In this document: positions 21,916 to 50,429 of the stretch, piece by piece
Layout of the letters: each line of letters begins with the position of its first letter
How positions within the stretch are numbered: the stretch's first letter is position 1
Origin: a virus
Lineage: Duplodnaviria > Heunggongvirae > Uroviricota > Caudoviricetes
Direction: 5' to 3' (one strand)
Virus record (IMG/VR): IMGVR_UViG_2663763326_000008
Location: 1 to 50,429 of that record
Length of the DNA: 50,429 nt
Position numbers and translations under genes: made by a program
The notes under the pieces: generated by a model
Database searches by the model: none
Told to the model about the DNA's origin: nothing
Seen by the model: the letters and a program-made list of their open reading frames with translations, nothing else

Positions 21916-21991
21916 TGGTGCTGGTTAACGGACTTGAACCGCTACCCATTCGCTTACAAGGCGACTGCTCTACCATTGGAGCTAAACCAGC
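21916..21991 (-). tRNA. tRNA, anticodon tentatively UGU (Thr), CCA encoded
   Basis: Hand-folded cloverleaf: acceptor GCTGGTT/AACCAGC, T-arm AGCGG-TTCAAGT-CCGTT, anticodon loop CTTGTAA; coordinates +/-2. Confidence 0.6.
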
Positions 21992-21996
21992 ATATT

Positions 21997-22071
21997 TGGC
22001 GGGACAGCGTGGACTCGAACCACGATAAGAAGGTTAACAGCCTTCCGTAATGACCTTTATACGACTGACCC
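21997..22071 (-). tRNA. tRNA, anticodon tentatively GUU (Asn), CCA encoded
   Basis: Hand-folded: T-arm CGTGG-TTCGAGT-CCACG, anticodon stem GAAGG/CCTTC with loop CTGTTAA; one acceptor mismatch; coordinates +/-2. Confidence 0.5.
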
Positions 22072-35667: not shown

Positions 35668-36133
35668 AATAGCCAATGAATACGCAAAATTGATGGATTC
35701 AGATTTAGAACCAGAGATGATTGCTGACACAATAGAAGGCATGGAAGGAGAATTTACCGATAAAATAGAGCAACTTCTTTCCGTCATTAAAAATGAATCT
35801 GGTTATGCTGAACGCCTCAAGGAAGAGGCAAAGTCACTTAATGAGCGAGCCGCAGTAATCCAAAATAAGATTGACAGCATCAAATCATATATAGCGTCAT
35901 CGCTTGAAATGGTTGGCAAGAAAAATATTCGAGCAGGTATTCACCAGGTAACAATCCGCAAACCGTCAGAAATTGTAGAAATAATCGACTCAAGCGCCCT
36001 TCCTCCTGAATACGTTGAGTTTGAAACGACAATTAAAGCCGACAAACTGGCAATCAAACACCAACTAAAAGCAGGAATAAATATCCCCGGCGCTCAACTC
36101 AAAGTTGGGAAACCTTCACTTCTTATCAAATAA
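35645..36133 (+). CDS. Hypothetical coiled-coil protein (recombination-module partner)
   Basis: 162 aa immediately after recT, overlapping its stop. Confidence 0.4.
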   Translation: MPVSKLYEIANEYAKLMDSDLEPEMIADTIEGMEGEFTDKIEQLLSVIKNESGYAERLKEEAKSLNERAAVIQNKIDSIKSYIASSLEMVGKKNIRAGIHQVTIRKPSEIVEIIDSSALPPEYVEFETTIKADKLAIKHQLKAGINIPGAQLKVGKPSLLIK

Positions 36134-36144
36134 CGGTATCGCCT

Positions 36145-36459
36145 ATGAAAAAGACTCCATGGGAGAAATGGGAAGTCGATTTCTTGCGCGAGGTAGCGGC
36201 GACAATGCCAGTTGAAGTTATCGCAGAAAAACTGGAAAGGACTGAAAAAGCAGTAATGGCGAAAGCAACAAGGATTGGCGCTGACATTGTTAGCCGACTT
36301 CGTGGAAGACGCTGGACAAGAGCCGAAGTATCACTTTTCGGTAAGTTCTCCGCAGAAGAAATAGCAATTGCAACCTGCCGCTCAATTTATTCAGTAAGAG
36401 CTATGCGATACAAGCTAAAAAAACTCGATGAAGAAAGAGCAGGCATACGAATAAATTAA
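36145..36459 (+). CDS. Hypothetical protein
   Basis: 104-aa ORF. Confidence 0.4.
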   Translation: MKKTPWEKWEVDFLREVAATMPVEVIAEKLERTEKAVMAKATRIGADIVSRLRGRRWTRAEVSLFGKFSAEEIAIATCRSIYSVRAMRYKLKKLDEERAGIRIN

Positions 36460-36475
36460 CATGGAATAATTAACA

Positions 36476-36757
36476 ATGAAGCTAAACATCGACCTCGGAA
36501 AATACGTTATTACCGGAACCAAACACGACCTGATTCTTAGCGAAAGAGGAATTATCAAAGAAGGCGAGAATGCAGGGAAAGAAACACTAAGTCGTATCGG
36601 TTATTACAGCAAGTTTGAGCATCTGGTTAAAGAGTTATGCAACCGTGAAATCCTGTTATCTCAGGCGCAGACGCTACAGGATATTCAGCAGCATATCGAG
36701 ACTTTAGGTGTATCACTTAGCATGGCTGTTGACCAGTTCATGGAGAGTAAATCATGA
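36476..36757 (+). CDS. Hypothetical protein
   Basis: 93-aa ORF. Confidence 0.4.
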
Positions 36758-36917
36758 GAGGACTTGCATACAATCCCGGCATTCTTCCGGCAGAAATGAT
36801 TATTCGCCAACGCGTAAAGCCAATGCCATCGAGAGAGGAATTGCTTAAGCGAAACTCGTTTCCATCAGTGAATCAGAACAAATATCTGAATGCGATGTGG
36901 CGTAAAGGAGGCAAACA

Positions 36918-37166
36918 GTGAGCAATTCAGCACGACTACAGCTTGGTTTTTCACCGCTATCAAAAACAATCGTGTTGGCAAAAATGCGTGACTTAGGGGA
37001 TGGAACAAAACGTCGTGTCGGCAATGATCGCGGTCGCGATGTAACCAACGAGGCCGCACAACTCGTTTGGCATCTAGTCATGGCTGAAGGCGGTGAAATT
37101 AATTGGGAGCTGGATGATGGTTCTCGCATGGTATTGAAGGCAGAAAAGCAGGAGCCTCCACAGTGA
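36918..37166 (+). CDS. Hypothetical protein (apparent GTG start)
   Basis: 82-aa ORF, no in-frame ATG at start. Confidence 0.3.
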
Positions 37167-37438
37167 ATATCGACACCACGATAACGATCGATACGGCCCT
37201 AAATACCGGACTGGCACTTCTCGGTTGGCTTTACATCATGTCCAGTACATGGCGATGGCTGGGTTCCATTTTCCTAAAACAGTGGAAAAAACGGCGCAAA
37301 CAGGAACTACGCCAGAAGGCATTAGAAGCGTTCTATGACGCATTTGAACTTAGCCGCATAGAACCAGGCACAACAGCCAGGATAGCGACAAAAGGCGACC
37401 TGATGATAGTGATGTTCAGACAGGAGAAAACAAAATGA
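37163..37438 (+). CDS. Hypothetical protein with one hydrophobic segment
   Basis: 91 aa; GLALLGWLYIMSS segment. Confidence 0.35.
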   Translation: MNIDTTITIDTALNTGLALLGWLYIMSSTWRWLGSIFLKQWKKRRKQELRQKALEAFYDAFELSRIEPGTTARIATKGDLMIVMFRQEKTK

Positions 37439-37659
37439 CAGAACAGACGATGACAAATCGCGAACTTGTTGATGCCGCGATTGAACTTGCTGGCGATTTT
37501 TATTCCATGATGGGTTACGAGCATCGACCTGGTTTTAAGTATTGGGAGTCACCGCATCCGCAAGAACAACAGGTGTTTGAAATGGCTTGCCGTGCTTTTG
37601 AGGTTATTCGCGGTTCTGATGTGATGGACGCCGTTGCCGACTTGGAGGATGAAGAGTGA
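37435..37659 (+). CDS. Hypothetical protein
   Basis: 74-aa acidic ORF. Confidence 0.35.
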   Translation: MTEQTMTNRELVDAAIELAGDFYSMMGYEHRPGFKYWESPHPQEQQVFEMACRAFEVIRGSDVMDAVADLEDEE

Positions 37660-38285
37660 GCGAGATTAACTATCAGGCACTGCGTGAAAAGGCAGAAAAA
37701 GCAACGTGGGGAGACTGGGACTCATATAAACCACACCGTGGCGCACGTGGTTATAAGGTCCGACTAAGTGGTCAGGCCATTGCGCAACACGTTCTGAAAA
37801 ACAACGCTGAATTTATTGCTGCCTTTAATCCAAAGGTTGCTTTGGCATTACTGGATGAACTGGAAAGAAACCAGCAATACATCAAACGCCGTGACCAGGA
37901 GAACGAGGATATTGCGCTAACGGTAGGGAAGCTGCGTGTTGAGCTGGAAGCCGCAGAGAAGCGCAACGCAAAATTACAAAGCGAGAATGCATACATCCGC
38001 AACCGGTACAAAGAACTGGACCTGTTAATCGGGAAAAACATTCTGGTCATGCAGGCTGCGATTATCGAATGGCAGGCAACTGGCGACGCTAAGAGCGGAC
38101 TGGCATGGATTTATAACACACTGTTTGGCCCAGGCGAATTGCCGGACGAATCTGAGAAAGATGCTCAGGCCTACTTTAATCGCAAATATGCACCGATTGA
38201 CGAAAAGCTTATGGAGCTTCACAAGTGGTTTTGGGAACAAAGTAAAGCCGAGCGCGCCGCTGGCATTCGCATCAAAGGAGAGTGA
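37656..38285 (+). CDS. Ea22-like early-region protein
   Basis: 209 aa; N-terminal INYQALREKAEKAT motif and coiled coil typical of lambdoid ead/Ea22-like proteins as I recall them. Confidence 0.45.
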   Translation: MSEINYQALREKAEKATWGDWDSYKPHRGARGYKVRLSGQAIAQHVLKNNAEFIAAFNPKVALALLDELERNQQYIKRRDQENEDIALTVGKLRVELEAAEKRNAKLQSENAYIRNRYKELDLLIGKNILVMQAAIIEWQATGDAKSGLAWIYNTLFGPGELPDESEKDAQAYFNRKYAPIDEKLMELHKWFWEQSKAERAAGIRIKGE

Positions 38286-38423
38286 GGATGTTCAATAATT
38301 TGCCTGGTACTGGTTTTTTCGTTGTTTTCGGTGTCATTTGCGCCGTTATTGGCTGGGCAGTTATTGAGTCCATTCTTTGGCTGCTTTCTTTCATTCACAT
38401 AACTATTGGTTGAGAACTGATCC

Positions 38424-39278
38424 ATGACCACTTTAACCGACAAAGAACTGATTAAAGAAATCAAAGAGCGAATCGGTAGCCTGGACGTGCGAGACAATAT
38501 TGAGCGTCGGGCTTATGAAATTGCTCTGGCATCGCTGGAAGCAGAGGCAGTTATGTTCTGTATATCAGGACAAAATGTAGATTCAGAAGAACATGTATCA
38601 ACCAGCAAAGCGGTTGTTGATGCCTGGGTTGAAGAATGGAATCAGGTTGACGGAAGTCCTGGCGAACCACTGTACAAAACTATGCCACTCTACTATCACG
38701 CTGCCTTGCCAGCGCCGGTAGTGCCGGAAGAAGCAACTCCGGAAAACGTAGAAATGCTCTCTGGCTATGTTTCCACGTACAAATTAACCGATAGCGAGCG
38801 CGATATTGCTGCCGAAATATGGAACGCCTGCCGCGCCACCATGCTTCATGGTGCCGAACCTGCAAGTAATCATGAAGAGTTGCCACTTGATTATCTCCAA
38901 GGTCAAAAAGATGGTCTTGAATGGGCTGCGCAGCTTGCAGAAGCAAATCACCCACAAACTGGCGACTGGCTTTACGATGACCCGCTGGAGCTGGCTAAAG
39001 CTATCAGAAAAGGTCCTGACATGCCCGAATTCGATGGACCAACTCCGGTAACTCTGGATGGTTGGATAAGCTGTAGTGAGCGAATGCCTGAGAACATTCC
39101 CGGAAGTTGTAAAGAGTATCTGGTGTTTGATGGGCTTAATAATAAAGTTCATCACGATTACTGGGTTGTCCCTGATGGAGACAGTGCGCCAGTTGCGTCG
39201 TTCTGGAATCATTACGGGGCACATGTAACTCACTGGATGCCTCTACCAGAACCGCCGAAGGAGGTTAACCGTGGCTAA
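38424..39278 (+). CDS. Hypothetical protein with DUF551-like C-terminus
   Basis: 284 aa; C-terminal WISCSERMPE...THWMPLPEPP pattern common in lambdoid early-left regions. Confidence 0.5.
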   Translation: MTTLTDKELIKEIKERIGSLDVRDNIERRAYEIALASLEAEAVMFCISGQNVDSEEHVSTSKAVVDAWVEEWNQVDGSPGEPLYKTMPLYYHAALPAPVVPEEATPENVEMLSGYVSTYKLTDSERDIAAEIWNACRATMLHGAEPASNHEELPLDYLQGQKDGLEWAAQLAEANHPQTGDWLYDDPLELAKAIRKGPDMPEFDGPTPVTLDGWISCSERMPENIPGSCKEYLVFDGLNNKVHHDYWVVPDGDSAPVASFWNHYGAHVTHWMPLPEPPKEVNRG

Positions 39279-39555
39279 CCTGCAACTTGCCGTTAAAGGT
39301 GAATACTTCGATGCCATGATTCGCGGGGAGAAAACGGAAGAGTATCGCCTGTGTAATGACTACTGGAATAAGCGCCTCGTTAACCGTAAGTATTACCGCC
39401 TGATTATCACAAAGGGATATCCGAAGCGCGAAGACTTCAGTCGCAGAATTGACGTCCCGTATAACGGATATGAAATAAAGACAATCACACATCCGCACTT
39501 CGGTGATAAACCGGTAAAGGTGTTCGCGATAAAGGTAAATATCGGCAATAAATAA
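39271..39555 (+). CDS. Hypothetical protein
   Basis: 94-aa ORF. Confidence 0.4.
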   Translation: MANLQLAVKGEYFDAMIRGEKTEEYRLCNDYWNKRLVNRKYYRLIITKGYPKREDFSRRIDVPYNGYEIKTITHPHFGDKPVKVFAIKVNIGNK

Positions 39556-39627
39556 CAATCCTCGCACTCGCGGGGATTTCTTTTATCTGAACTCGCTACG
39601 GCGGGTTTTGTTTTATGGAGATGATAA

Positions 39628-39846
39628 ATGTACTTCCGGGTCACAGGTGAATGGAATGGAGAGCCATTCAACAGAGTTATCGAAGCAGAGAACATCAATG
39701 ACTGCTATGACCACTGGATGCTGTGGGCGCAGATAGCACATGCAGACGTAACCAATATTCGAATTGAAGAACTGAAAAACACCAAGCCGCCTGATGGCGG
39801 TTTTTTATTGCCTGATTTGCAGGTTCGATTCCCTATTCGGAGATAG
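39628..39846 (+). CDS. Hypothetical protein
   Basis: 72-aa ORF. Confidence 0.35.
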   Translation: MYFRVTGEWNGEPFNRVIEAENINDCYDHWMLWAQIAHADVTNIRIEELKNTKPPDGGFLLPDLQVRFPIRR

Positions 39847-39851
39847 CACTC

Positions 39852-40052
39852 ATGCAACACGAACTACAACCTGATTCACTGGTTGATTTGAAATTCATCA
39901 TGGCTGATACTGGCTTTGGTAAGACCTTCATCTATGACCGGATTAAGTCCGGAGACCTGCCTAAAGCCAAAGTTATCCACGGGCGAGCAAGATGGTTATA
40001 TCGTGACCATTGTGAATTCAAAAATAAGCTCTTAAGCCGCGCCAATGGGTAA
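39852..40052 (+). CDS. AlpA-family HTH protein / putative excisionase
   Basis: 66 aa; HTH-like ADTGFGKTFIYDRIKSGDLP; immediately upstream of integrase. Confidence 0.6.
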   Translation: MQHELQPDSLVDLKFIMADTGFGKTFIYDRIKSGDLPKAKVIHGRARWLYRDHCEFKNKLLSRANG

Positions 40053-40300
40053 AATAGCGGGTAAAATATTTTTCACATCTAAAAAACACCATTCCAATCA
40101 ATCCCCTGCCGCCTCAAGTAGATGTCTGCAGGGGACACCATGAACACTTCTCACTAAGTTCAATTAATTCCATAACTCACTGTTTTAACTGATATCATCT
40201 CCTTATACTCGTCCAGCAAAGTACCATTATTTCTAATGGAATCTATACATCTTTGCGTATAACATTGTGTATAACTGAGTTCGATCTTTTTTCTATACAC

Positions 40301-41476
40301 ATGCTGCTATCTGACATCCAAATAAAAAGAGCAAAACCGAAGGACAAACCCTATACGCTTAACGATGGTATGGGGCTATCACTCCTGATCGACACAGCGG
40401 GCAGTAAAGGCTGGCGTTTTCGCTATCGCTTTGCAGGTAAGCCTAAGATGATTTCCTTTGGCGTATATGGCGATGTGTCGTTGGCACAGGCACGTACCAA
40501 ACGTGATGAAGCGCGTTCGATGTTAGCCAACGGGATAAACCCAAGTGAAGCCAGAAAAGCAGATAAGATTGCTTTGCAGTTCGCGCATGAGAACAGCTTT
40601 GAGTCTGTGGCCAGAGAATGGCACTCATCGAAAAAAGCCACCTGGTCAGAGGGTTATGCAAAAGAGGTTCTCAATTGTATGGAAAAGGATATTTTTCCTT
40701 TTATCGGCCAGCGCCCAATTGAGCAGATTGAACCATTAGAACTGCTAACCGTCCTGCAAAAAATAGAGAAAAGAGGTGCGCTAGAGCAAACCAGTAAGAT
40801 CCGCCGCCGCTGTGGTGAAGTGCTTCGTTATGCTGTTGCCACTGGTAGAGCAAAGTATAATTTTGCACCCGATTTAGCTATCGCACTCAACAAACCTAAA
40901 ACCCAACACTTCCCGTTCCTGACTGAAAGCGAGTTGCCCGAGTTCGTTAATGCTCTGGATAACTATCAGGGCAGTTTAGTTACCAAATACGCCACGCAGC
41001 TGTTGATGCTAACAGGCGTGCGAACAATTGAACTACGTGCAGCGGAATGGGCTGAGTTTGATTTAGATAATGCCTTATGGGAGATCCCCAAAGAACGGAT
41101 GAAGAAACGCCGCCCCCATCTGGTTCCGTTATCAACTCAGGCGATCAATATCCTGAAAAAGCTGCAAGAAATAACAGGGAATTACAGCCTCGTTTTCCCT
41201 GGCCGGAATGACGTCAGTAAACCAATGAGCGAAGCCAGCATCAACAAAGTGATAAAACTACTGGGTTATCACGGTCGGTTAACGGGTCACGGTTTCAGGC
41301 ATACCATGAGCACCATCTTGCATGAGCATGGGTTTGAAAGTGCCTGGATTGAAATGCAGCTTGCGCATGTTGATAAGAACTCTATTCGAGGTACTTACAA
41401 TCATGCGCAATATATTAAAGATCGACAAGTAATGATGGAATGGTACGCTAGCTTATTAAATACGACCTGCTATTAA
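40301..41476 (+). CDS. int: Tyrosine integrase, P4/CP4-57 type (paralog of 1..1158)
   Basis: Start taken at MLLSDIQIKRAKPKDKPY; shares RRRCGEV.RYA..TGRAKYN.APDLA and HGFRH motifs with the first integrase. Confidence 0.9.
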   Translation: MLLSDIQIKRAKPKDKPYTLNDGMGLSLLIDTAGSKGWRFRYRFAGKPKMISFGVYGDVSLAQARTKRDEARSMLANGINPSEARKADKIALQFAHENSFESVAREWHSSKKATWSEGYAKEVLNCMEKDIFPFIGQRPIEQIEPLELLTVLQKIEKRGALEQTSKIRRRCGEVLRYAVATGRAKYNFAPDLAIALNKPKTQHFPFLTESELPEFVNALDNYQGSLVTKYATQLLMLTGVRTIELRAAEWAEFDLDNALWEIPKERMKKRRPHLVPLSTQAINILKKLQEITGNYSLVFPGRNDVSKPMSEASINKVIKLLGYHGRLTGHGFRHTMSTILHEHGFESAWIEMQLAHVDKNSIRGTYNHAQYIKDRQVMMEWYASLLNTTCY

Positions 41477-42406
41477 ATCCAGCATGAAACAAATATGGTG
41501 AGTAATTTGATACTGTTTGTTTTTTGGCAACCCAGGGAAATGCCTTACAGTTGGTTGACTATTGTAATAATAATAGTTAAGACCAATGTTGCTGCCAAAC
41601 TGGGTTGGATGTTGGGGAACAAGATTTGTAATTTGATCTGAAACATCTAAAAATTTTGCAGTAACATTTGAACTTCCTCGTTGCGTGTTGCTTGATACAA
41701 AATGACGAATCCAAACTGTATTCGCTTGTAAATTCTTGAACACCAAATGTGCGGCAACAGCAGAAGGTTGACCACCTCCAAGATCTAGTACCTGGCCAGT
41801 AATTGTATAATCGCCAAATCCTAAGTAATTTTGTCCCACGAATTGATGTGCGTGCGTGAAAAGTTCCGGCCCATTATAATCAGCATTTTTTGCTAACTTT
41901 CTAAAGTTATCGCTAATAATAATTAACTTCGACAAAGGAAGAAGAGCGCACTGATTAGGAAGCATTTTATTATTTAAAACAACATGATAACTAATCAATT
42001 GATTTGTCGCCAACAACTGAATATCAGAGTTGGATAATGATGGATTATCATATAGAAGTGCAACTCGTCTATTTAAGTTAGCATTCAACCAATTATTAAT
42101 ATCATTAATCGTTGTATTGGGCTGAATAAGATATCCAGAGATGATATTATTTTTATTTGTTAATACACTTGATAAATTTTGATTTAAAGTTAAGACGTTA
42201 TTGTGTGAAGAAAAATCTTCCTGATAAGGATTAAGGATAACAATTATGTCAGAATTCCAAACATTTAAACATGTTAATAAATTTCTCGTATTGACGTTAA
42301 TTGGTTCTAAAATTGGTAGCAGACCATTTAGGCTAACTCCCTTCGCAACGAGGTCCCTAAGGCATAATAACTCTGTACTTCTCGCATACAAATATGGGCT
42401 ATACAT
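41456..42406 (-). CDS. Hypothetical 316-aa protein, AT-rich cargo gene (second gene of two-gene operon)
   Basis: Asn/Leu-rich, low-GC codon usage; 21-nt spacing after upstream gene; 3' end overlaps integrase 3' end by about 21 nt; no motif recognised. Confidence 0.55.
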   Translation of the reverse strand: MYSPYLYARSTELLCLRDLVAKGVSLNGLLPILEPINVNTRNLLTCLNVWNSDIIVILNPYQEDFSSHNNVLTLNQNLSSVLTNKNNIISGYLIQPNTTINDINNWLNANLNRRVALLYDNPSLSNSDIQLLATNQLISYHVVLNNKMLPNQCALLPLSKLIIISDNFRKLAKNADYNGPELFTHAHQFVGQNYLGFGDYTITGQVLDLGGGQPSAVAAHLVFKNLQANTVWIRHFVSSNTQRGSSNVTAKFLDVSDQITNLVPQHPTQFGSNIGLNYYYYNSQPTVRHFPGLPKNKQYQITHHICFMLDLIAGRI

Positions 42407-42427
42407 AACTTACAACTCCTGAGGATA

Positions 42428-43309
42428 TCAACAAATTTTAATTTTTACATCCATCAAATTCATGATGAATTCTTTTTGCTTTCTTGATAATGGTGTTGCA
42501 TAACCTAAAACACGTAAACATGCTGGAAGAGAATAAATATAATCCAAAAAAACTTTATCGTTACATCTTTTTTTCATAGCAGAGATAAAGTATTTATTTG
42601 CTATGTTTAATGGCATCTGCATGAATATCTCTTTACAATATTCATAAACCAATCCGTTAGGCATATTTATTTTAGTTGAAGTGTAATCTTCTATTATAGC
42701 TAAGAACTCTTCCTTTCTAAGAACTGAAAACAAGCTGTCACTTTTAATATAATCAATATTTGAATCTGCCTCCTTAATGACACTCAATTGATCTTTTTTA
42801 TTCAAAACCATAACTCCCACTCTGGGGAGATTTAAAGCACAATATTTACTTGCATACTCTGGATGTGTAACTATATACACTTTATCAAAAACATCCAAAT
42901 AATCAGGGGCTTGAGTAATCAACCTTTTTGGTGAATCATACTCTGTCTTAATCTCGTAAGCTGTAGACGTACCATTAAACACCGCAACATCCACTATAGA
43001 GTTTTTAATTGGTAACTCTATGGACGACGAACTTGTTTTTGGGCTGTGCTTACCGAATATTATTTTATTGACAAGTGCTGTCTTATAAACATATTCATTT
43101 CTATAATTCAGACGCAAAAAATCATATAATGATGTAAATAAATCCCTTAGTGAAATCTCATGTTCATTATTATCATTGTTTGAAAACAGTGTTTCATAGC
43201 AGTAAGAATCAAAACTCCCAAATAAATCCGAAATATCCTTACCTTTTGCTAAGGATGAAAAAATGGGGCGACGGAAAAATTTAGCATATTCCTTTTTATT
43301 ATGACTCAT
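42428..43309 (-). CDS. Hypothetical 293-aa protein with PD-(D/E)xK-like nuclease motif, AT-rich cargo gene (first gene of operon)
   Basis: SSIELPIKNSIVDVAVFNGTSTAYEIKTEYD contains E...D...ExK spacing typical of restriction-endonuclease-fold nucleases. Confidence 0.55.
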   Translation of the reverse strand: MSHNKKEYAKFFRRPIFSSLAKGKDISDLFGSFDSYCYETLFSNNDNNEHEISLRDLFTSLYDFLRLNYRNEYVYKTALVNKIIFGKHSPKTSSSSIELPIKNSIVDVAVFNGTSTAYEIKTEYDSPKRLITQAPDYLDVFDKVYIVTHPEYASKYCALNLPRVGVMVLNKKDQLSVIKEADSNIDYIKSDSLFSVLRKEEFLAIIEDYTSTKINMPNGLVYEYCKEIFMQMPLNIANKYFISAMKKRCNDKVFLDYIYSLPACLRVLGYATPLSRKQKEFIMNLMDVKIKIC

Positions 43310-43988
43310 TACTCATACTCTATAAACATCATGCAATTTGATAAGTTATGACGAATTCTCACCATCCAGTTACTACCTGTACATACTAATCAAAAAAAAC
43401 GAGTACGCAAGATACGAAAGTACTTTTCTTGTTCACCAGTTAGCTTACCTTGATCCTCACCAGCGACTGGAAGATAGGTAGCAGTATATGTGGAAACCTT
43501 CCCCTAGCTAGGTCTACAAACGTAGTTTGGGCATTTAGGCTCCACGATTCACGGTTTGACACGGCCTGATATCTGCACATTCGTTTTGATATGCAGCAAT
43601 CGTGAAAAAGGAAAATATACGCTCGACAGACCAAAACGGCACTACACCGCACCCGCCTGCGGTTTTCATATCACTAAAAATTTTCAGCCTGGATTTTTTA
43701 CAAACGATACCGCCAGTCCGTGCCAGTCCTCGAGATGTACTGCGATACAGGAACTGAAAAGAATGAAAAGAAATTCATTTTTTTTCAGTTTTACTGTCCG
43801 TCGAATCTATGGCCTGAATACGCAACTCTATGATATTAAATGGATAATTAATTTTAGGTGTGTGATTTTATGAAGGTTTGTGAAACATGAAGAAGATAAC
43901 CAGTTGAAAAATAATAATTTTATGACCGTATAAACTGAAATCCTGTGTTCAGGTTCCGGGAACAGATCGGCCATTCCCGACGCATACT

Positions 43989-44261
43989 TTACCCATTCTT
44001 TTGCGCAGCCAGCAGCAACTTTAAAGCCTTTTCCCGTTCCTCGGGTGGAATTGCATCAATCAGCTCTTTAACCCTTCCCTGCCCGTTCAGCGCGCTTGGA
44101 CTAACGGAATGGGAGAAAGCAACATTCATCACAAACGAGTGACCGCACTCCACATTAGAGCAATAGCAGTACACATCGTACAGTTGTGGGTGTTTCCTGT
44201 TTGTTTTACCTATCCGTGCTACTGCCTGACATGTGGGGCAGTACATTCTCATCATCTTCAT
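43989..44261 (-). CDS. ogr: Ogr/Delta-family zinc-finger late-gene activator
   Basis: CPTCQ...(22 aa)...CYCSNVECGHSF matches the CX2C-X22-CX4C Ogr/Delta pattern of P2/P4. Confidence 0.75.
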   Translation of the reverse strand: MKMMRMYCPTCQAVARIGKTNRKHPQLYDVYCYCSNVECGHSFVMNVAFSHSVSPSALNGQGRVKELIDAIPPEEREKALKLLLAAQKNG

Positions 44262-44327
44262 CGTTCTGTGCCCTATACTGTTGCCCGCCAGAAGAAGGGA
44301 TTTGGATCCCTACCTCTTGTTCTGAAC

Positions 44328-44517
44328 GTGTAACACTGGTAACACGTGTAACGCTATTGATTTAAAAGGATTTAATCTGTTACCAGTTAGCAAAATCAAG
44401 AGGTAACGCGTGGTAACACACCATTTTTTGTTACCTCTGTTACCAGTCAGTATTTTTGACTGGTAACACTGAAGAACCGCATCAGTAACGGGTGTTACCT
44501 CTGTTACCAGTGTTACC
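44328..44517. repeat. Iteron array (about 12 copies of TGTTACC / GGTAACA in both orientations), crr/ori-like
   Basis: ctgttaccag, tgttacctc, tggtaacac, gtgtaacac repeated at short irregular spacing immediately downstream of alpha-like primase gene. Confidence 0.6.
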
Positions 44518-44543
44518 TCATAAAAATAAGACTCACGCGATAA

Positions 44544-47231
44544 TCACTCAGGTTCAGCGCTTCCCAGTACCTGTGTATTGAACTGGTACACACGTTTAAG
44601 CCCTATTTCTGGCAGGCGAATGCTGTTTTGCGTCCGGCCATCTTCACCGGGTTTCAGCCAGCCCGCGTCCACACACAACCTGGCCACCTTACGCGAGTCA
44701 AATCCCTTACAGATCTCCTTCCAGCCTGACGGGAGAACGTAGAACGTCACAACCGGCTCTGTCACGTTGTCTCCTTTATCGACTTTTCTGAATCCCATCA
44801 TTGAAACAGGCCGGTTCCTGTCGTCATTCCAGTCAGCAAACCGACTGAACTGATTACGCGTCATGAAGTCCCGAACCTGTTCAAGTGCCGCTTTATCTTC
44901 CTGATTAGCTGTATGGCCCCGGTCAGCCATCCATGCAGCCAGACAGCTTTGAGCGGCACGAAAGGCCTCTCCCTCCGGCCATCCTGTGATGCCCGCTTTT
45001 GTGGCCAGCTCCCCGGCCATCGCAACCAGAGCAAAACGGGTAACAGCCCGGCCAACCTGATTCCCGGCATTTTCCGGCGTCAGCCTTCGGGTATACTCTT
45101 TCAATAAGGCTTTCGCCTGACTGGTCAGTTCCGGCAGATCAGCGGTCAGGCAATACAGCCAGTCGCGGAATGGTGCACCATGATAATGCGCTACGTGCTG
45201 CTCAAGATGCTCAGCCAGGGTTTTCCCGCTACTGAAGCCATGAAGTTCTTCAAACACGCCATACTTGCCCGAATCGCTTGGGATCTGGATCATTCTGACC
45301 TCAACCCCGGCATACGTACGTTCCCCGGCGCTTGCCGCATGCTCTACCAGTGACAGTTCCCCGGTAGACAGAAACAACAGATTCCAGCGGTTGGTTTCCC
45401 TTACCGAACCATCTGTTCTGGCTCTGGCTTTGCCCTGCCCGTTAGCCAGCATATAAGCGATATTTCCCGCCTCCCTGCCGTCAACCTCCCGGATTTCATC
45501 CAGCATCAGCGTGGCATCATTGCGGCGGCTCGCCGTTCCTTCTAAGGCATTCCCCGTCGCCCGCCACGTATGCCAGAAATCTGTTCCACCACATACTGAT
45601 GCAGCCACTTTCATCGTCGTGGTTTTACCGTCTGTGGATTCCCCTTTGAGGTGATAACCTCCACCGCCGATACCAACCAGTTTCAGAAGGGGGGCAGCAA
45701 ATGCCAGACTCACCGCAAAGGCAAGACGGGCATTCTTTATGCAATAACGGCCTATATTTTCACGCCAGCCCTCTGATGTGCCGCTGACACGAAAATCACG
45801 CCCCTGCACACTCGATGTTTGTAAGATGACTGACTGGGCTTCGCGCCCTATCACTTCATCCTGGAGAACGTAAACCCCGCCGTGCCAGCCAGTTTTATTC
45901 ACACAGGTTACTTTTCTGTCCGGTTTACACAGCGAGATATATTCCATCAGGAATGCTCTGGCCATGCCGTTAATGTTGATGTAAGAAAGCCCGTTAACCA
46001 GCAGAACGCGGCGCAGTTCTTCCCCGCTACCGCCCAGCATCTCCATCGGCATTGCCCATTTACGGCTGTTTCCGTTGGTATCTTCCCATTCCAGCAAACG
46101 CCCGTAATTACTTCCATCAGCATCACTGGTGATTGCCGTCACCCGCAACGGACTGCAAATTTTGATATTACGTATCTCTGTATCACCATCAGACTTATTA
46201 ACCAGCTTGTCGTACCACAAATATTCTTTTGTCAGCCGGAACCCTTCTGGTAAACGGGTCTGCCCTTTGCCATGCAGCGTCATTTCTTCACGAAAGGCAT
46301 CTCTCGCCCGTTCTTTCCCCACTTCCTGCCGATAATCATCCCAGTCAGCCTTATGGCGTACCGGAGGGAGCGTTACCCAGCCATCCACCGCTTTGGCGGC
46401 TTTCTCTGCCTGAATACGCCCGGTGTTTTCTTTGCCGTCAGCCAGATCATTATCTCCGGCCAGAATGATCCGGGTTTCCGGCCAGCGTTTTCGGATCTGC
46501 TCCGTCACCTTCAGTAAATTGGTGGCAGCGACAGCCGCCACGATCCATCCTTCAGTCAGCAGACTGACGGTAAGCGCCGTGGCAAAACCCTCAGTGATAA
46601 TCACCTGTTCAGGTGTTTCAGCGGGTATATCGGTCAGGGCAATGAATGCGCCAGACAGCTGGCTACCGGGCAGCAGACTTTTATCCCCGTCAGGATTGAT
46701 AAGCTGGCCACCAGTAATATTCCCGGAAATATCCGTCAAAGGCAGCAGTAATGAACCGGTGGAAAATGTTATTCCGGCCAGATTCAAAGGCTGTGACAGC
46801 AAGGGAAGTGAATACCCGTGTAAGCTCTTATTTGTCAGATAGACCGGCTCACCATTGCAGGACTGCTGTCTGAGTCTGGTATATCGCTCCGCGCCCGCTT
46901 CTTTTCCTGCGGCCTTTTTCCTGGCTGGCAATGCGGGCTTCTCCTGTATTTCTGGTAATGCAAGCGCCTCAGATACCATCCCGGCGACTTCTTTTATCTT
47001 TCTTCCTGTCACCAGACGAACCAGATCAAGACCATCGCCATGACCGCACTGATTACAAAACCACGTCCCTCGCCCCGCTTTATCGTCCAGTCGAAAACGA
47101 TCTTTTCCACCACAGGCAGGGCAAGCCCCATGATGTCCTGCGGACGGTACTTTAATACCTAATGCTGACAGGATATAAGGCCAGCGCCCAATTGCAGCTC
47201 CGGAAATCGTGGATACAGACGGTGTTTTCAC
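44544..47231 (-). CDS. Primase-helicase (P4 alpha-like replication protein)
   Basis: 895 aa; N-terminal zinc-ribbon CPACGGKDRFRLDD...WFCNQCGHGDG, central toprim-like region, Walker A GESTDGKTT. Confidence 0.85.
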   Translation of the reverse strand: MKTPSVSTISGAAIGRWPYILSALGIKVPSAGHHGACPACGGKDRFRLDDKAGRGTWFCNQCGHGDGLDLVRLVTGRKIKEVAGMVSEALALPEIQEKPALPARKKAAGKEAGAERYTRLRQQSCNGEPVYLTNKSLHGYSLPLLSQPLNLAGITFSTGSLLLPLTDISGNITGGQLINPDGDKSLLPGSQLSGAFIALTDIPAETPEQVIITEGFATALTVSLLTEGWIVAAVAATNLLKVTEQIRKRWPETRIILAGDNDLADGKENTGRIQAEKAAKAVDGWVTLPPVRHKADWDDYRQEVGKERARDAFREEMTLHGKGQTRLPEGFRLTKEYLWYDKLVNKSDGDTEIRNIKICSPLRVTAITSDADGSNYGRLLEWEDTNGNSRKWAMPMEMLGGSGEELRRVLLVNGLSYININGMARAFLMEYISLCKPDRKVTCVNKTGWHGGVYVLQDEVIGREAQSVILQTSSVQGRDFRVSGTSEGWRENIGRYCIKNARLAFAVSLAFAAPLLKLVGIGGGGYHLKGESTDGKTTTMKVAASVCGGTDFWHTWRATGNALEGTASRRNDATLMLDEIREVDGREAGNIAYMLANGQGKARARTDGSVRETNRWNLLFLSTGELSLVEHAASAGERTYAGVEVRMIQIPSDSGKYGVFEELHGFSSGKTLAEHLEQHVAHYHGAPFRDWLYCLTADLPELTSQAKALLKEYTRRLTPENAGNQVGRAVTRFALVAMAGELATKAGITGWPEGEAFRAAQSCLAAWMADRGHTANQEDKAALEQVRDFMTRNQFSRFADWNDDRNRPVSMMGFRKVDKGDNVTEPVVTFYVLPSGWKEICKGFDSRKVARLCVDAGWLKPGEDGRTQNSIRLPEIGLKRVYQFNTQVLGSAEPE

Positions 47232-47638
47232 AGCAGCACCTCCTGACCTTCCGGCTTCACAAATTCAAAACCTTCGGGTAGTTCGCCATCAGGTGCTCCG
47301 AAAATAATATCCCGGTAAACCTCACGCATCTCTGTGACACCAAAAACTGACAGGCGAATATTTTCTGACATAAAGCCTGGTTTAAGCATTTTTTCCAGTT
47401 TCTCTGCGGCCAGTATGCAACCAGCATCAGCCCCAAACTCATTCACCCACGGCATTTCAATATGGTAAATAATATTACTCACCACTTTTTCGTGGGAGAG
47501 TTCTATTCGTTCGCCATCTTCAATATAAACAGGTTCATTATGAACACGCACCATTAAGGAAATGAATGCATCAGCAATGTAGTAGCGTAAGACTGCTGTT
47601 CGTAAAGCATGCGCCTTTAAATTTTGATTATTATTCAT
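47228..47638 (-). CDS. Hypothetical protein upstream of alpha (operon)
   Basis: 136 aa; ATGA-type overlap with alpha start. Confidence 0.4.
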   Translation of the reverse strand: MNNNQNLKAHALRTAVLRYYIADAFISLMVRVHNEPVYIEDGERIELSHEKVVSNIIYHIEMPWVNEFGADAGCILAAEKLEKMLKPGFMSENIRLSVFGVTEMREVYRDIIFGAPDGELPEGFEFVKPEGQEVLL

Positions 47639-47867
47639 CGCGCATCACTCCCTTAATTGTGCTGGTTTCCTTAACAACGCCATCCAGTTGTTCGGCAATA
47701 CAGGCCACTAAAGCCGCAGCGCCTTCCGCTGAAACAGTTCTCGCTCCATTCACTGTGGGCACGGACAAGACCTCTGCAAGAAACTCACTGGCCAGTGCCG
47801 CCCGTAACAGACGACTCTCCCCCTGTTCACTCAATATGCAGCCTTGCTTAAAATTCATGGATTTCAT
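47631..47867 (-). CDS. Hypothetical protein
   Basis: 78-aa ORF overlapping next gene. Confidence 0.35.
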   Translation of the reverse strand: MKSMNFKQGCILSEQGESRLLRAALASEFLAEVLSVPTVNGARTVSAEGAAALVACIAEQLDGVVKETSTIKGVMRDE

Positions 47868-48496
47868 GCAACCACCTCCCCGGCTCTTTTCACAGGGATA
47901 CGGGCAGCAAAGCTCAGGATAAATTCAGTGGCAAGTTTAAGGCGTGCAGCATGCTCGCATTCTGCGATTACACGCACAGGGCGTGGACGGGCATCACGGT
48001 CTGTACGGCGGACAGCCAGAAAGACAAAGGTAAATTCAGGGTGAGATAAAGCAGGGACTGTAGCCATAATGGCAACCTCCTTCAGATAGCGGGTAACGCT
48101 ACCACCGGAGTTCCTACGCTCATGGGTGGTAGCCCAGACGGGGGTAGGAATACCGGCTCTGAAGGATACCGGCCAGCCCGAAAGCTGCCCCGCCTGGACT
48201 ACCATAATTCTGATGATGTGGCGTAAAAAATAAAAAAATACAATCAGCCACCACACCATAAATTTTAGGTGAGTCAAAGCTGCGACACAAAAAAACACGC
48301 CTAGCGCGTGTAGTATCGCCTTCAGATAACACGGGTTCCTACGCCCGGCTGCCGATTTTGCGGCAACCTTTAAACTATATCCCGCGCATTCCTGGTGAGG
48401 CAAGAAATTTATAACCGAAAACTGATCATTGCCTGGATTAATTAACGCTGGCATGCTTAAGCCTCTGCTTAAAAATAGTTCTTCATTTTTCCTGAT

Positions 48497-48528
48497 GCTG
48501 TAAACGAGACCCGCCTCTGAGCGGGTCT
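48497..48528. terminator. Putative terminator hairpin downstream of capsid gene
   Basis: agacccgc-ctctga-gcgggtct perfect 8-bp stem followed by ttctgt; directly after capsid stop. Confidence 0.35.
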
Positions 48529-48541
48529 TTCTGTCGCTAAG

Positions 48542-49546
48542 TCAATCCGCAAACGTCAGGGTGCACTCATCAACAGCCGCGTACAGTTCAGGTTCACCGA
48601 GTGCATAACCTTCATTGCGCAGGTAGGAATGCACGTATTCACTGCTTTCATCATCAAACTCAGCACGAAACCAGCGTGTTATCGCCTGAGTGTAAATATG
48701 CAGATTATCCAGCGTCGTTACTGCCAGACGCTTACCCGGCATAAACGGGGGAATAAACGCAAAGCGGCCAGCAACAGAACTTGTAGCCATCTGTGCCGCA
48801 TTCACATCAGACGGGCGGTCTGCGGCATTAAATAACTTCAGGCGTTGATGTGCTGCCAGCTCTGCCCCAACCAGTACAACCAGACGAGGATCTTCACGAA
48901 ACTGCTCAGCAATAAGCTCTGTAATCAGATGGTTGGCCAGAGCATCAATATTTTTCCAGGTGCCAGTCTCTCCCAGAGTGACAGGCTCAGAGATGATTTG
49001 CTTTCCGTTCCCGTAGGCTTTCGCCAGTGCATGCCAGCCAATATTGACATCCTCGCCTTTTTTATTGATTTCCGGGTTTGTAGTATTTGCAATCGACACA
49101 CCGTTGAAACCGACCCGCAGCATGTCCAGCGCATATGCCTGGGCAAAAAAGCTCTCAACCGTTTTCTCAAACTCATCCGGCACGCCGGTATGGTAAATAT
49201 GAGACATATCGGAATAGCTGATCCGGGCGCAGGTATCCGTCTCTGTCAGAAAGAACTCCGTACCATTGATTGCCATTTTTTTGTGGAAACGGCCACCATC
49301 CACACGTCCGGTATACAGTTCACTGGCACCAATATTGACGGCATTACCTGACACGGCGTTAACATCACGTAGGGTAATATTTTTAATAAGCCACCCGGAT
49401 TCCAGAATTGAGGTACGCAGTATATTTTCAGTAGGTTCGCTTAATGCAAAGCGTCTGTTTGATTCTTCCTGATAGTTAGTGCCAGTGACGAATTTATTAT
49501 GATAACGACGTGCTGCGTCCGGCCTTTCAGTTTTGAAGGCATACAT
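48542..49546 (-). CDS. Major capsid protein, P2 gpN-like
   Basis: 334 aa; VGFNGVS, EDPRLVVLVGAEL and LDNLHIYT resemble P2 gpN AGFNGVK, EDPDLVVIVGRQL, LENLSIYY from memory. Confidence 0.65.
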   Translation of the reverse strand: MYAFKTERPDAARRYHNKFVTGTNYQEESNRRFALSEPTENILRTSILESGWLIKNITLRDVNAVSGNAVNIGASELYTGRVDGGRFHKKMAINGTEFFLTETDTCARISYSDMSHIYHTGVPDEFEKTVESFFAQAYALDMLRVGFNGVSIANTTNPEINKKGEDVNIGWHALAKAYGNGKQIISEPVTLGETGTWKNIDALANHLITELIAEQFREDPRLVVLVGAELAAHQRLKLFNAADRPSDVNAAQMATSSVAGRFAFIPPFMPGKRLAVTTLDNLHIYTQAITRWFRAEFDDESSEYVHSYLRNEGYALGEPELYAAVDECTLTFAD

Positions 49547-49568
49547 AGTTTTTCACCTTTTTAAGTAT

Positions 49569-50429
49569 TTAAGAAAAGATTTTATTTTTGTACTCAGTAA
49601 CCAGATTGTATTTCATTACATGCTCAACATAATCCCGGTCACTTACGACTGAACGTAATACATAATTATCTGCTCGATAGTACTCCCTGTAAGCCATAGC
49701 TCTTGCCATTCCACCGTTATTTAATACATAACGATCAGTTGGAACGCTACAACGACTAATAATTTCACTCACGGAATCAGATAAAGACTTGAGTGCATCA
49801 GTAATAAATTTAATATCACGGACAACGTCACTGTCATTAAATACAGAAATAAAATCAGCAGGGATCTGGCCGGATTGAGGAAATATATTCAGTAAACGCT
49901 TATCGATTCCCTTCCCAATGTAGTTTCCTTCATCGGCCAGTACTCCCGGCAAAAGCTTGATCGTGCTCAATCGACTATGTTGTTCATTCAACCGGGAAAC
50001 AGCCAGATGGTAATACCGTTCAGCATCCGCTCGTTCAGCATGCCCCATTTTATTCGTTTTGGCTTCAGCAATGCTACTGACGCCGTTTTTTGAGAATGTG
50101 CTTTTCCATGCAACTTCCGCATTTGTCACTTCACGCTGCCGGAAAGATAACTCTTCCTCTTCCTGACGACACAACTGGGCATAACGGCTCAGGAGCAGGT
50201 TGATCTCATTCGCCACAGTTTCCGTATCAGGTACTGTTAACCCCGTAAGTGAATACAGCTTTTCACCTTTAGCTCGCAGCTTATTCAGTGAATATATTTC
50301 AATAATACGCACAATACAGGCCGTGTCGCTATGAGTCTCTTTAAATGATCTTACTTTGTAACTATCTAACACCGACACATGTTCGTTCTTAATTGATGCC
50401 AATTTCTTCTTAAAAACATTGTCAACCAT
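49569..50429 (-). CDS. Putative capsid scaffolding protein (P2 gpO-position)
   Basis: 286 aa directly upstream of gpN-like gene on same strand (P2 gpO is about 284 aa); no sequence match confirmed; ATG at last base of window. Confidence 0.4.
   Translation of the reverse strand: MVDNVFKKKLASIKNEHVSVLDSYKVRSFKETHSDTACIVRIIEIYSLNKLRAKGEKLYSLTGLTVPDTETVANEINLLLSRYAQLCRQEEEELSFRQREVTNAEVAWKSTFSKNGVSSIAEAKTNKMGHAERADAERYYHLAVSRLNEQHSRLSTIKLLPGVLADEGNYIGKGIDKRLLNIFPQSGQIPADFISVFNDSDVVRDIKFITDALKSLSDSVSEIISRCSVPTDRYVLNNGGMARAMAYREYYRADNYVLRSVVSDRDYVEHVMKYNLVTEYKNKIFS

Follow-up and report, generated by a model that had tools for sequence, protein, structure and literature searches.

A nuclease and TIM-barrel gene pair carried as AT-rich cargo in an Escherichia coli argW island, a predicted gop-less relative of P4 gop-beta-cII

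Introduction

What is encoded by two strikingly AT-rich genes that lie between the integrase gene and the ogr-alpha segment of an island in Escherichia coli? The DNA in question is a stretch of 50,429 nt recorded in IMG/VR as the Caudoviricetes virus IMGVR_UViG_2663763326_000008 (hereafter the window), and the two genes, termed A and B, are found on its minus strand at positions 42428–43309 and 41456–42406, respectively. An initial annotation, made from the letters alone, had viewed them as a candidate uncharacterized defense operon. On balance, the pair is read here as acquired cargo in the variable slot of a satellite-like island at tRNA-Arg (argW), most likely anti-phage, and as a two-gene form, devoid of gop, of the ancient gop-beta-cII module.

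Organization and Composition of the Gene Pair

The two co-directional open reading frames (ORFs) run from 43309 to 42428 (A, 293 aa) and from 42406 to 41456 (B, 316 aa), and the coordinates agree with the lengths and the 21-nt spacer first reported. The spacer (42407–42427, minus strand) contains a Shine-Dalgarno sequence as read from the DNA, AGGAG at 42420–42416, which is 9 nt ahead of the ATG of B; at the other end, the 3′ end of B and the 3′ end of the integrase gene overlap by 21 bp. The GC content of the pair was 32.4% (30.6% for A and 34.0% for B, with a third-position value, GC3, of 0.27), compared to 46.6% for the window, 46.2% for the integrase gene and 50.6% for the ogr-alpha segment, and values as low as that of the pair occurred in 4 of 972 sliding windows of 1854 bp. 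The AT-rich, horizontally acquired character originally judged by eye was thus borne out by computation.

Upstream of A there is a non-coding leader (43310–43632, minus strand) that is specific to this cargo, being unshared with sister islands bearing other cargo, and the promoter of the pair is presumed to be within it. A promoter scan gave only weak sigma-70-like matches, 18 against 12.8 expected, and is uninformative in such AT-rich DNA. Searching positions 40000–44600 with Rfam yielded nothing beyond a sub-threshold match to malK-II, which was taken as noise.

Gene A Encodes a Predicted Nuclease of the P4 cII Family

The product of A matched the NCBIfam family sce7726 (NF033832) with 175.6 bits (cutoff 70; E = 9.6e-52) and the PADLOC model “cll” (E = 1.2e-18). 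The cII protein of P4 itself belongs to the sce7726 family (E = 2.5e-44), and the core of A was 39% identical to it over 61 residues (E = 9e-11). No match to A was found in a local copy of Pfam; the newer Pfam name for the A/cII family is Phage_P4_cII (PF26915).

Among 79 homologues from many phyla, residues Y69, R70, E72, K76, E98, D107, N112, G113, E119, K121, D125, Q133 and Y137 were invariant. The site formed by E98, D107, E119 and K121, together with Q133-x3-Y137, is that of a PD-(D/E)xK protein with the RecB/Cas4-type QxxxY motif. The E...D...ExK arrangement to which the initial annotation had drawn attention (IELP..IVDVAVF..AYEIKT) is therefore present in A, with its four key residues invariant. 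The AlphaFold2 (AF2) model of A (pLDDT, predicted local distance difference test, 94; pTM, predicted template modeling score, 0.91) comprised a nuclease core at about residues 69–180 followed by an all-helical C-terminal domain. The order of its secondary-structure elements agrees with an α-β-β-β-α-β core, and the restriction-endonuclease-like fold was recovered by structure prediction. Judged by sequence and model, A is a true member of the PD-(D/E)xK nuclease family with predicted activity, and since its catalytic residues are invariant in every branch, nuclease chemistry appears to be central.

Gene B Encodes a Predicted TIM Barrel Remotely Related to P4 Beta

The product of B matched the NCBIfam family sce7725 (NF033831) with 242.2 bits (cutoff 60; E = 1.1e-71), residues 2–311 being aligned with positions 1–311 of the 312 in the profile. 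Its predicted model was a confident TIM barrel. Across 69 sequences, E12, E34, N59, D199, H220, H235, S238, K297 and H304 were invariant or nearly so, and most of these residues sit at or just past the ends of strands, as in the active sites of barrel enzymes. With the sce7725 profile, 1488 clusters (50% identity, E ≤ 1e-3) were recovered among 1.84 billion representatives.

When profiles built from 49 sequences of sce7725 and 42 of Beta_protein were compared with hhalign, the probability was 93% (E = 3.3e-7) over 250 columns. B and P4 beta were not significantly similar by BLASTP, yet they have in common the N-terminal motif Y-x-P-x-L-x-x-R-x-x-E, YSPYLYARSTELLCL in B and YYPALRTRSAEMTGL in beta, as well as G-D-Y/H. 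On these comparisons B is remotely homologous to P4 beta (Pfam Beta_protein) but lies below the threshold of the beta family itself, and the link receives independent support because both families keep a partnership with a cII-like gene.

Other searches added little. None of the PADLOC models matched B, and its sole Pfam match, to NAD_synthase, was sub-threshold (E = 0.11). A fold search of BFVD with B returned one significant match, a Gordonia phage protein that could not be tied to the beta family, and tblastn with P4 beta gave matches in P4 and a Pasteurella phage only. Sequence searches of the PDB, both single-sequence and profile, returned noise alone (e.g., the GroEL apical domain). One alternative for a nuclease beside a barrel of this kind is a restriction-modification-like system, in which B would mark or alter host DNA or the nucleotide pool and A would cut unmarked DNA; this is considered decidedly unlikely.

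Comparison With P4 gop-beta-cII and Other Systems

Because A belongs to the cII family and B is a remote homologue of beta, the pair can be placed as a gop-less, co-directional relative of P4 gop-beta-cII (Rst_gop_beta_cll in DefenseFinder). The families sce7725 and sce7726 were already named and, as far as sequence comparison tells, the pair is a gop-less, rearranged and distant variant of that system. A and cII fall in one NCBIfam family and have a common PD-(D/E)xK core, B is remotely homologous to beta and has motifs in common with it, and in both cases the genes are AT-rich accessory cargo beside a satellite integrase. The differences are equally clear: the pair is without Gop; its order is A then B in one direction, whereas P4 has gop and beta in one direction with cII convergent to them; B fails the Pfam Beta_protein model and A is just 39% identical to cII over the 61 residues aligned; and the island that carries the pair does not appear to be a canonical P4. 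The initial annotation, which had matched the pair to no named system, is contradicted on this point by the NCBIfam and PADLOC assignments and by the remote homology with P4 beta. Its overall reading of acquired hotspot cargo with a PD-(D/E)xK protein stands, but not the view that the cargo is unrelated to anything known. PADLOC v2 would miss the locus, since its cII model alone matches.

The P4 system is reported to give protection against lambda and P1 (Rousset et al., 2022, PMC9122126), and its toxicity is reported to be triggered by the phage gene orf184 (bioRxiv 10.1101/2023.04.06.535777). Without beta, Gop is lethal to the cell (Ghisotti, 1990, as cited in PMC9122126).

A second comparison is with three-gene operons of the composition sce7726/sce7725/RES, which contain the identical two families in the order and spacing seen in the window. 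What the window lacks is the downstream gene with Zn-ribbon-HEPN/RES-NTD1-RES architecture, for which there is no room because B ends inside the 3′ end of the integrase gene. Neither a small Gop-like ORF with two transmembrane (TM) segments nor a RES gene was found at positions 41400–43700, which makes A the most plausible effector. Finally, PARIS (AriA/AriB) and other hotspot cargo occupy the same int/ogr slot in sister islands, with the same overlap of the integrase 3′ end, but the PARIS proteins, an AAA ATPase and a DUF4435 Toprim nuclease, are unrelated to A and B.

Distribution of the Pair Across Phyla and Its Third Genes

When 100,044 species genomes were searched with the profile of A, 80 loci from many phyla were retrieved. 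A B-like ORF was directly downstream of A on the same strand in 72 of them, and two further loci had the genes adjacent, once as B then A and once convergent, bringing the adjacent total to 74/80. Of the six loci in which B was missing, four are cut off by the edge of a contig. Loci with both genes came from Proteobacteria, Acidobacteria, Bacteroidota, Firmicutes, Actinobacteria, Planctomycetes and others. A and B are thus an obligate and usually translationally close gene pair over many phyla. In two loci from Deltaproteobacteria metagenome-assembled genomes (L036, 1117–2130; L038, 654–1667) the cII-like gene had no detectable B downstream despite there being room, and the B gene was truncated at L033 and L077.

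A RES-domain gene followed B in 38 of the 80 loci, all among the more distant ones and spread over many phyla (examples within L032–L089 are L032, 7709–8725; L044, 3220–4233; and L086, 7865–8938). Apart from two loci, the gap between B and this gene measured −28 to +15 nt; the maximum was 164 nt. The product is about 340 aa long, carries CxxC..CxxC in its N-terminal part, matches HEPN/RES-NTD1 weakly and contains a RES domain (E = 1e-12 to 1e-17). It was absent in E. coli and has no model in PADLOC v2. Anantharaman et al. (2013, PMC3710099) include this architecture in their list of toxin domains, and a Pseudomonas aeruginosa integrative mobilizable element with RES, sce7725 and sce7726 genes has been mentioned in passing (PMC9394441).

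The 22 closest loci, from Proteobacteria and Acidobacteria and with 36–65% identity, were two-gene loci like that of the window. Three beta-type loci (L090–L092, from Methylibium, Pseudomonas and Acinetobacter) had the P4 layout, with a Gop homologue (2 TM), beta and a convergent cII. This family-wide pattern points to a conserved core of nuclease and barrel, to which a toxic third gene is added in exchangeable form or not at all.

Among 121 neighbors at 73 loci there were integrases, type I S/R subunits, MADS components, a type IIG enzyme and TIR proteins. A distant pair in Paraburkholderia was located between Hachiman and type I restriction-modification genes, and another on a metagenome contig was near a restriction-modification system and an SLFN helicase. 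The link to defense genes by neighborhood is suggestive, not overwhelming. A function specific to satellites was rejected because most loci lie outside satellites. Two contigs flagged UNVERIFIED also encode the pair and were not used as evidence: OR848224.1 (L093, 10.5 kb, from a Listeria phage preparation) and MT837073.1 (L094, 7.8 kb, from human feces), which could be satellites or contaminating bacterial DNA.

IS1 Alleles, Expression and the Toxin-Antitoxin Question

In two strains related to sequence type 131 (ST131), THO-015 and MNCRE44 (L095, 1657–3384; L096, 4449–6175), the sce7725 gene was interrupted by the element IS1, and the two insertions differ in both site and orientation. In both disrupted alleles gene A was identical and intact (WP_000019149.1). 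This shows that B is dispensable, and it follows from broken B beside intact A that A is not a constitutive toxin restrained by B. The role of B as an antitoxin of A was accordingly rejected, given two independent insertions that break B and leave A intact.

The same alleles bear on the idea that the pair is an addiction (toxin-antitoxin) module that stabilizes the island and plays no role against phages. The location of the pair on mobile elements would suit such a module, as would the RES domain of other branches, a classic toxin domain of toxin-antitoxin systems, and the lethality of P4 Gop without beta (Ghisotti, 1990, as cited in PMC9122126). The E. coli form, however, has neither Gop nor RES, the loss of B with A kept is tolerated, so that no toxin/antitoxin dependence is visible, and the P4 relative does confer phage resistance. 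An addiction module is therefore regarded as unlikely.

IS1 prefers AT-rich DNA, and this preference may be behind the insertions in B, which thus need not mean decay. Decay would make the pair a functionless remnant of a three-gene system that had lost its effector, a view in keeping with the toxic third gene of related branches and with the IS1 hits in some ST131 genomes. It is at odds with the intact ORFs and with the retention of all invariant residues in the 22 two-gene loci of diverse Proteobacteria and Acidobacteria, at 36–65% identity. The protein is also expressed: the sce7725 protein was seen by liquid chromatography-mass spectrometry in clinical E. coli (PMC8203672), and therefore the operon is expressed. 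Taken together, a decayed remnant seems very improbable. The same proteomics survey found the abundance of the sce7725 protein to be >4-fold higher in clinical E. coli with aminoglycoside resistance (PMC8203672), a difference that probably marks the ST131 lineage and not a resistance factor.

Probable Function

An anti-phage role of the pair is probable when these analyses are considered together. In such a scheme, A and B would constitute the conserved sensing and controlling core, and in the E. coli form A would probably deliver the output by cutting DNA. The role of B would be that of a required partner, an activator or a sensor, acting enzymatically or as a regulator but not as an antitoxin. 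Phage infection would switch the system on, possibly sensed via a phage protein as reported for gop-beta-cII, and in three-gene forms B may regulate the toxin encoded by the third gene, as beta does Gop.

Several observations weigh against this interpretation. The link of B to beta is remote, as Pfam Beta_protein (PF14350) did not match B at E ≤ 1 and BLASTP was insignificant. Protection against phages was tested for the three-gene form of P4 alone, and Gop, the toxic component of that form, is missing from the window. The neighborhood signal is mixed, with many housekeeping genes among the 121 neighbors. No phage-resistance phenotype of any sce7725/sce7726 pair, and no functional study of the present one, was found in the literature searched. 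The nearest solved relative of A is 3dnx, a protein of unknown function with 15% identity, and HHpred places P4 cII in the MmcB-like family. That family is linked to DNA repair.

Another alternative is DNA repair or processing, in which an MmcB-like nuclease and an accessory enzyme would serve the host or the element, for instance in damage tolerance or in the handling of satellite DNA. Against this, the pair has a patchy distribution shaped by horizontal transfer, and its GC content in E. coli is very low; a PARIS-like pair replaces A and B in the same slot; toxin genes are linked to the pair in other branches; and the pair is not tied to satellites, most loci being outside them. A repair function is accordingly considered very unlikely. 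A differs from the MmcB-like protein SPO1766 (PDB 3dnx) in its added N- and C-terminal helical domains and its obligate TIM-barrel partner.

The RefSeq accessions and signature peptides of the pair were not found in Rousset et al. (2022), in DefensePredictor or in a metagenomic selection study, the absence from supplements not being absolute; nor were they found in the full DefensePredictor list of screened transcription units.

The link with gop-beta-cII supplies starting points, as phages and a phage trigger are reported for that system. Through the same link, a P4 locus that has been little understood becomes one of the branches of a family that comprises about 1,500 sequence clusters (50% identity) and has modular effectors. 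More tentatively, the cII-like nuclease and the beta-like TIM barrel could be the core of a large, undescribed immune superfamily that crosses phyla and drives interchangeable killers (the membrane protein Gop, an NAD+-targeting toxin of the RES type, or just the nuclease), with P4 gop-beta-cII as one branch and a barrel that may perform new sensing or signaling chemistry. The role of a TIM barrel in such a module could reveal a new chemistry of sensing or of the effector.

The Host Island and Its Variable Cargo Slot

The window matched E. coli ST131 strain 4993 with 100% identity. Of 5426 complete E. coli genomes, 425 (about 8%) contained the 2.2-kb cargo, 422 of them at ≥99% identity, and the carriers largely belong to the pandemic ST131 lineage. 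In strain SK1144 the island is about 10.5 kb long and located at tRNA-Arg (argW). Its genes are, in order, the integrase, B, A, an ogr/Delta-like gene, an alpha-like gene with DUF927, two hypothetical genes, an Icd-like gene, a P2-family major capsid gene, one hypothetical gene and a helix-turn-helix regulator.

In the window, the tyrosine integrase gene is at 40253/40301–41476 on the plus strand, according to the RefSeq annotation of the identical region, and domain matches of a homologous integrase (L010) indicate a P4-type arm-binding architecture in its relatives. The ORF list and RefSeq place two genes of the island backbone on the minus strand, the Ogr/Delta-like zinc-finger gene at 43989–44261 and the alpha-like primase/helicase gene with DUF927 at 44544–47231. 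The position of the pair beside an integrase and an Ogr/alpha module, as first described, agrees with this annotation. The RefSeq annotation of the island includes the P2-family major capsid gene and does not include psu or sid. The host island thus does not appear to be a canonical P4, and could represent a separate kind of P2-dependent satellite that encodes a capsid protein of its own (window 44544–50429; L001, 13002–23375).

The ogr and alpha backbone was present in 450 genomes. Divergent copies of it had other genes in the int/ogr slot: DUF4435 with an AAA ATPase (the PARIS architecture), a Sll1717-family P-loop ATPase, or two hypothetical proteins. The left boundary of the slot, at 41415–41476 (plus strand) from the alignment of integrase 3′ ends in three islands, lies within coding sequence; the swap begins at about 41415–41440, and the last ~20 codons of the integrase vary with each cargo. 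On the right, identity among four islands with different cargo begins at about 43633, just before a GC-rich hairpin (43636–43663) that scored as terminator-like on both strands in a terminator scan. This hairpin is where conserved backbone first appears as one moves from the cargo towards ogr, and so it marks the right boundary of the slot. The different gene sets and the sharp swap boundaries between int and ogr identify the slot as a true hotspot of variable cargo, the kind of location that the initial annotation had associated with P4-like satellites. The overlap of the cargo gene 3′ end with that of the integrase also holds for the PARIS-like cargo (window 41415–41476; L008, 3560–3581). 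In Morganella (L010, 7747–9018) the pair abuts an integrase gene that is 41–43% identical to the pair-adjacent integrases at L011, L012 and L014.

The left end of the island is the attachment (att) core CTGCAGGGGACACCA at 40126–40140 (plus strand), which is the 3′ end of tRNA-Arg (argW), as seen from the alignment with SK1144, where the tRNA-Arg gene is ahead of the integrase gene. A lambdoid prophage is located in tandem upstream, and the core at 40126–40140 is common to both, indicating two elements on one tRNA-Arg site. The end of the prophage, at about 36000–40140, contains ead/Ea22-like and DUF551 genes and a TorI/AlpA-like excisionase gene (39852–40052). Further upstream, in a region presumed to be prophage, genes for tRNA-Thr(TGT) and tRNA-Asn(GTT) were found on the minus strand at 21916–22071.

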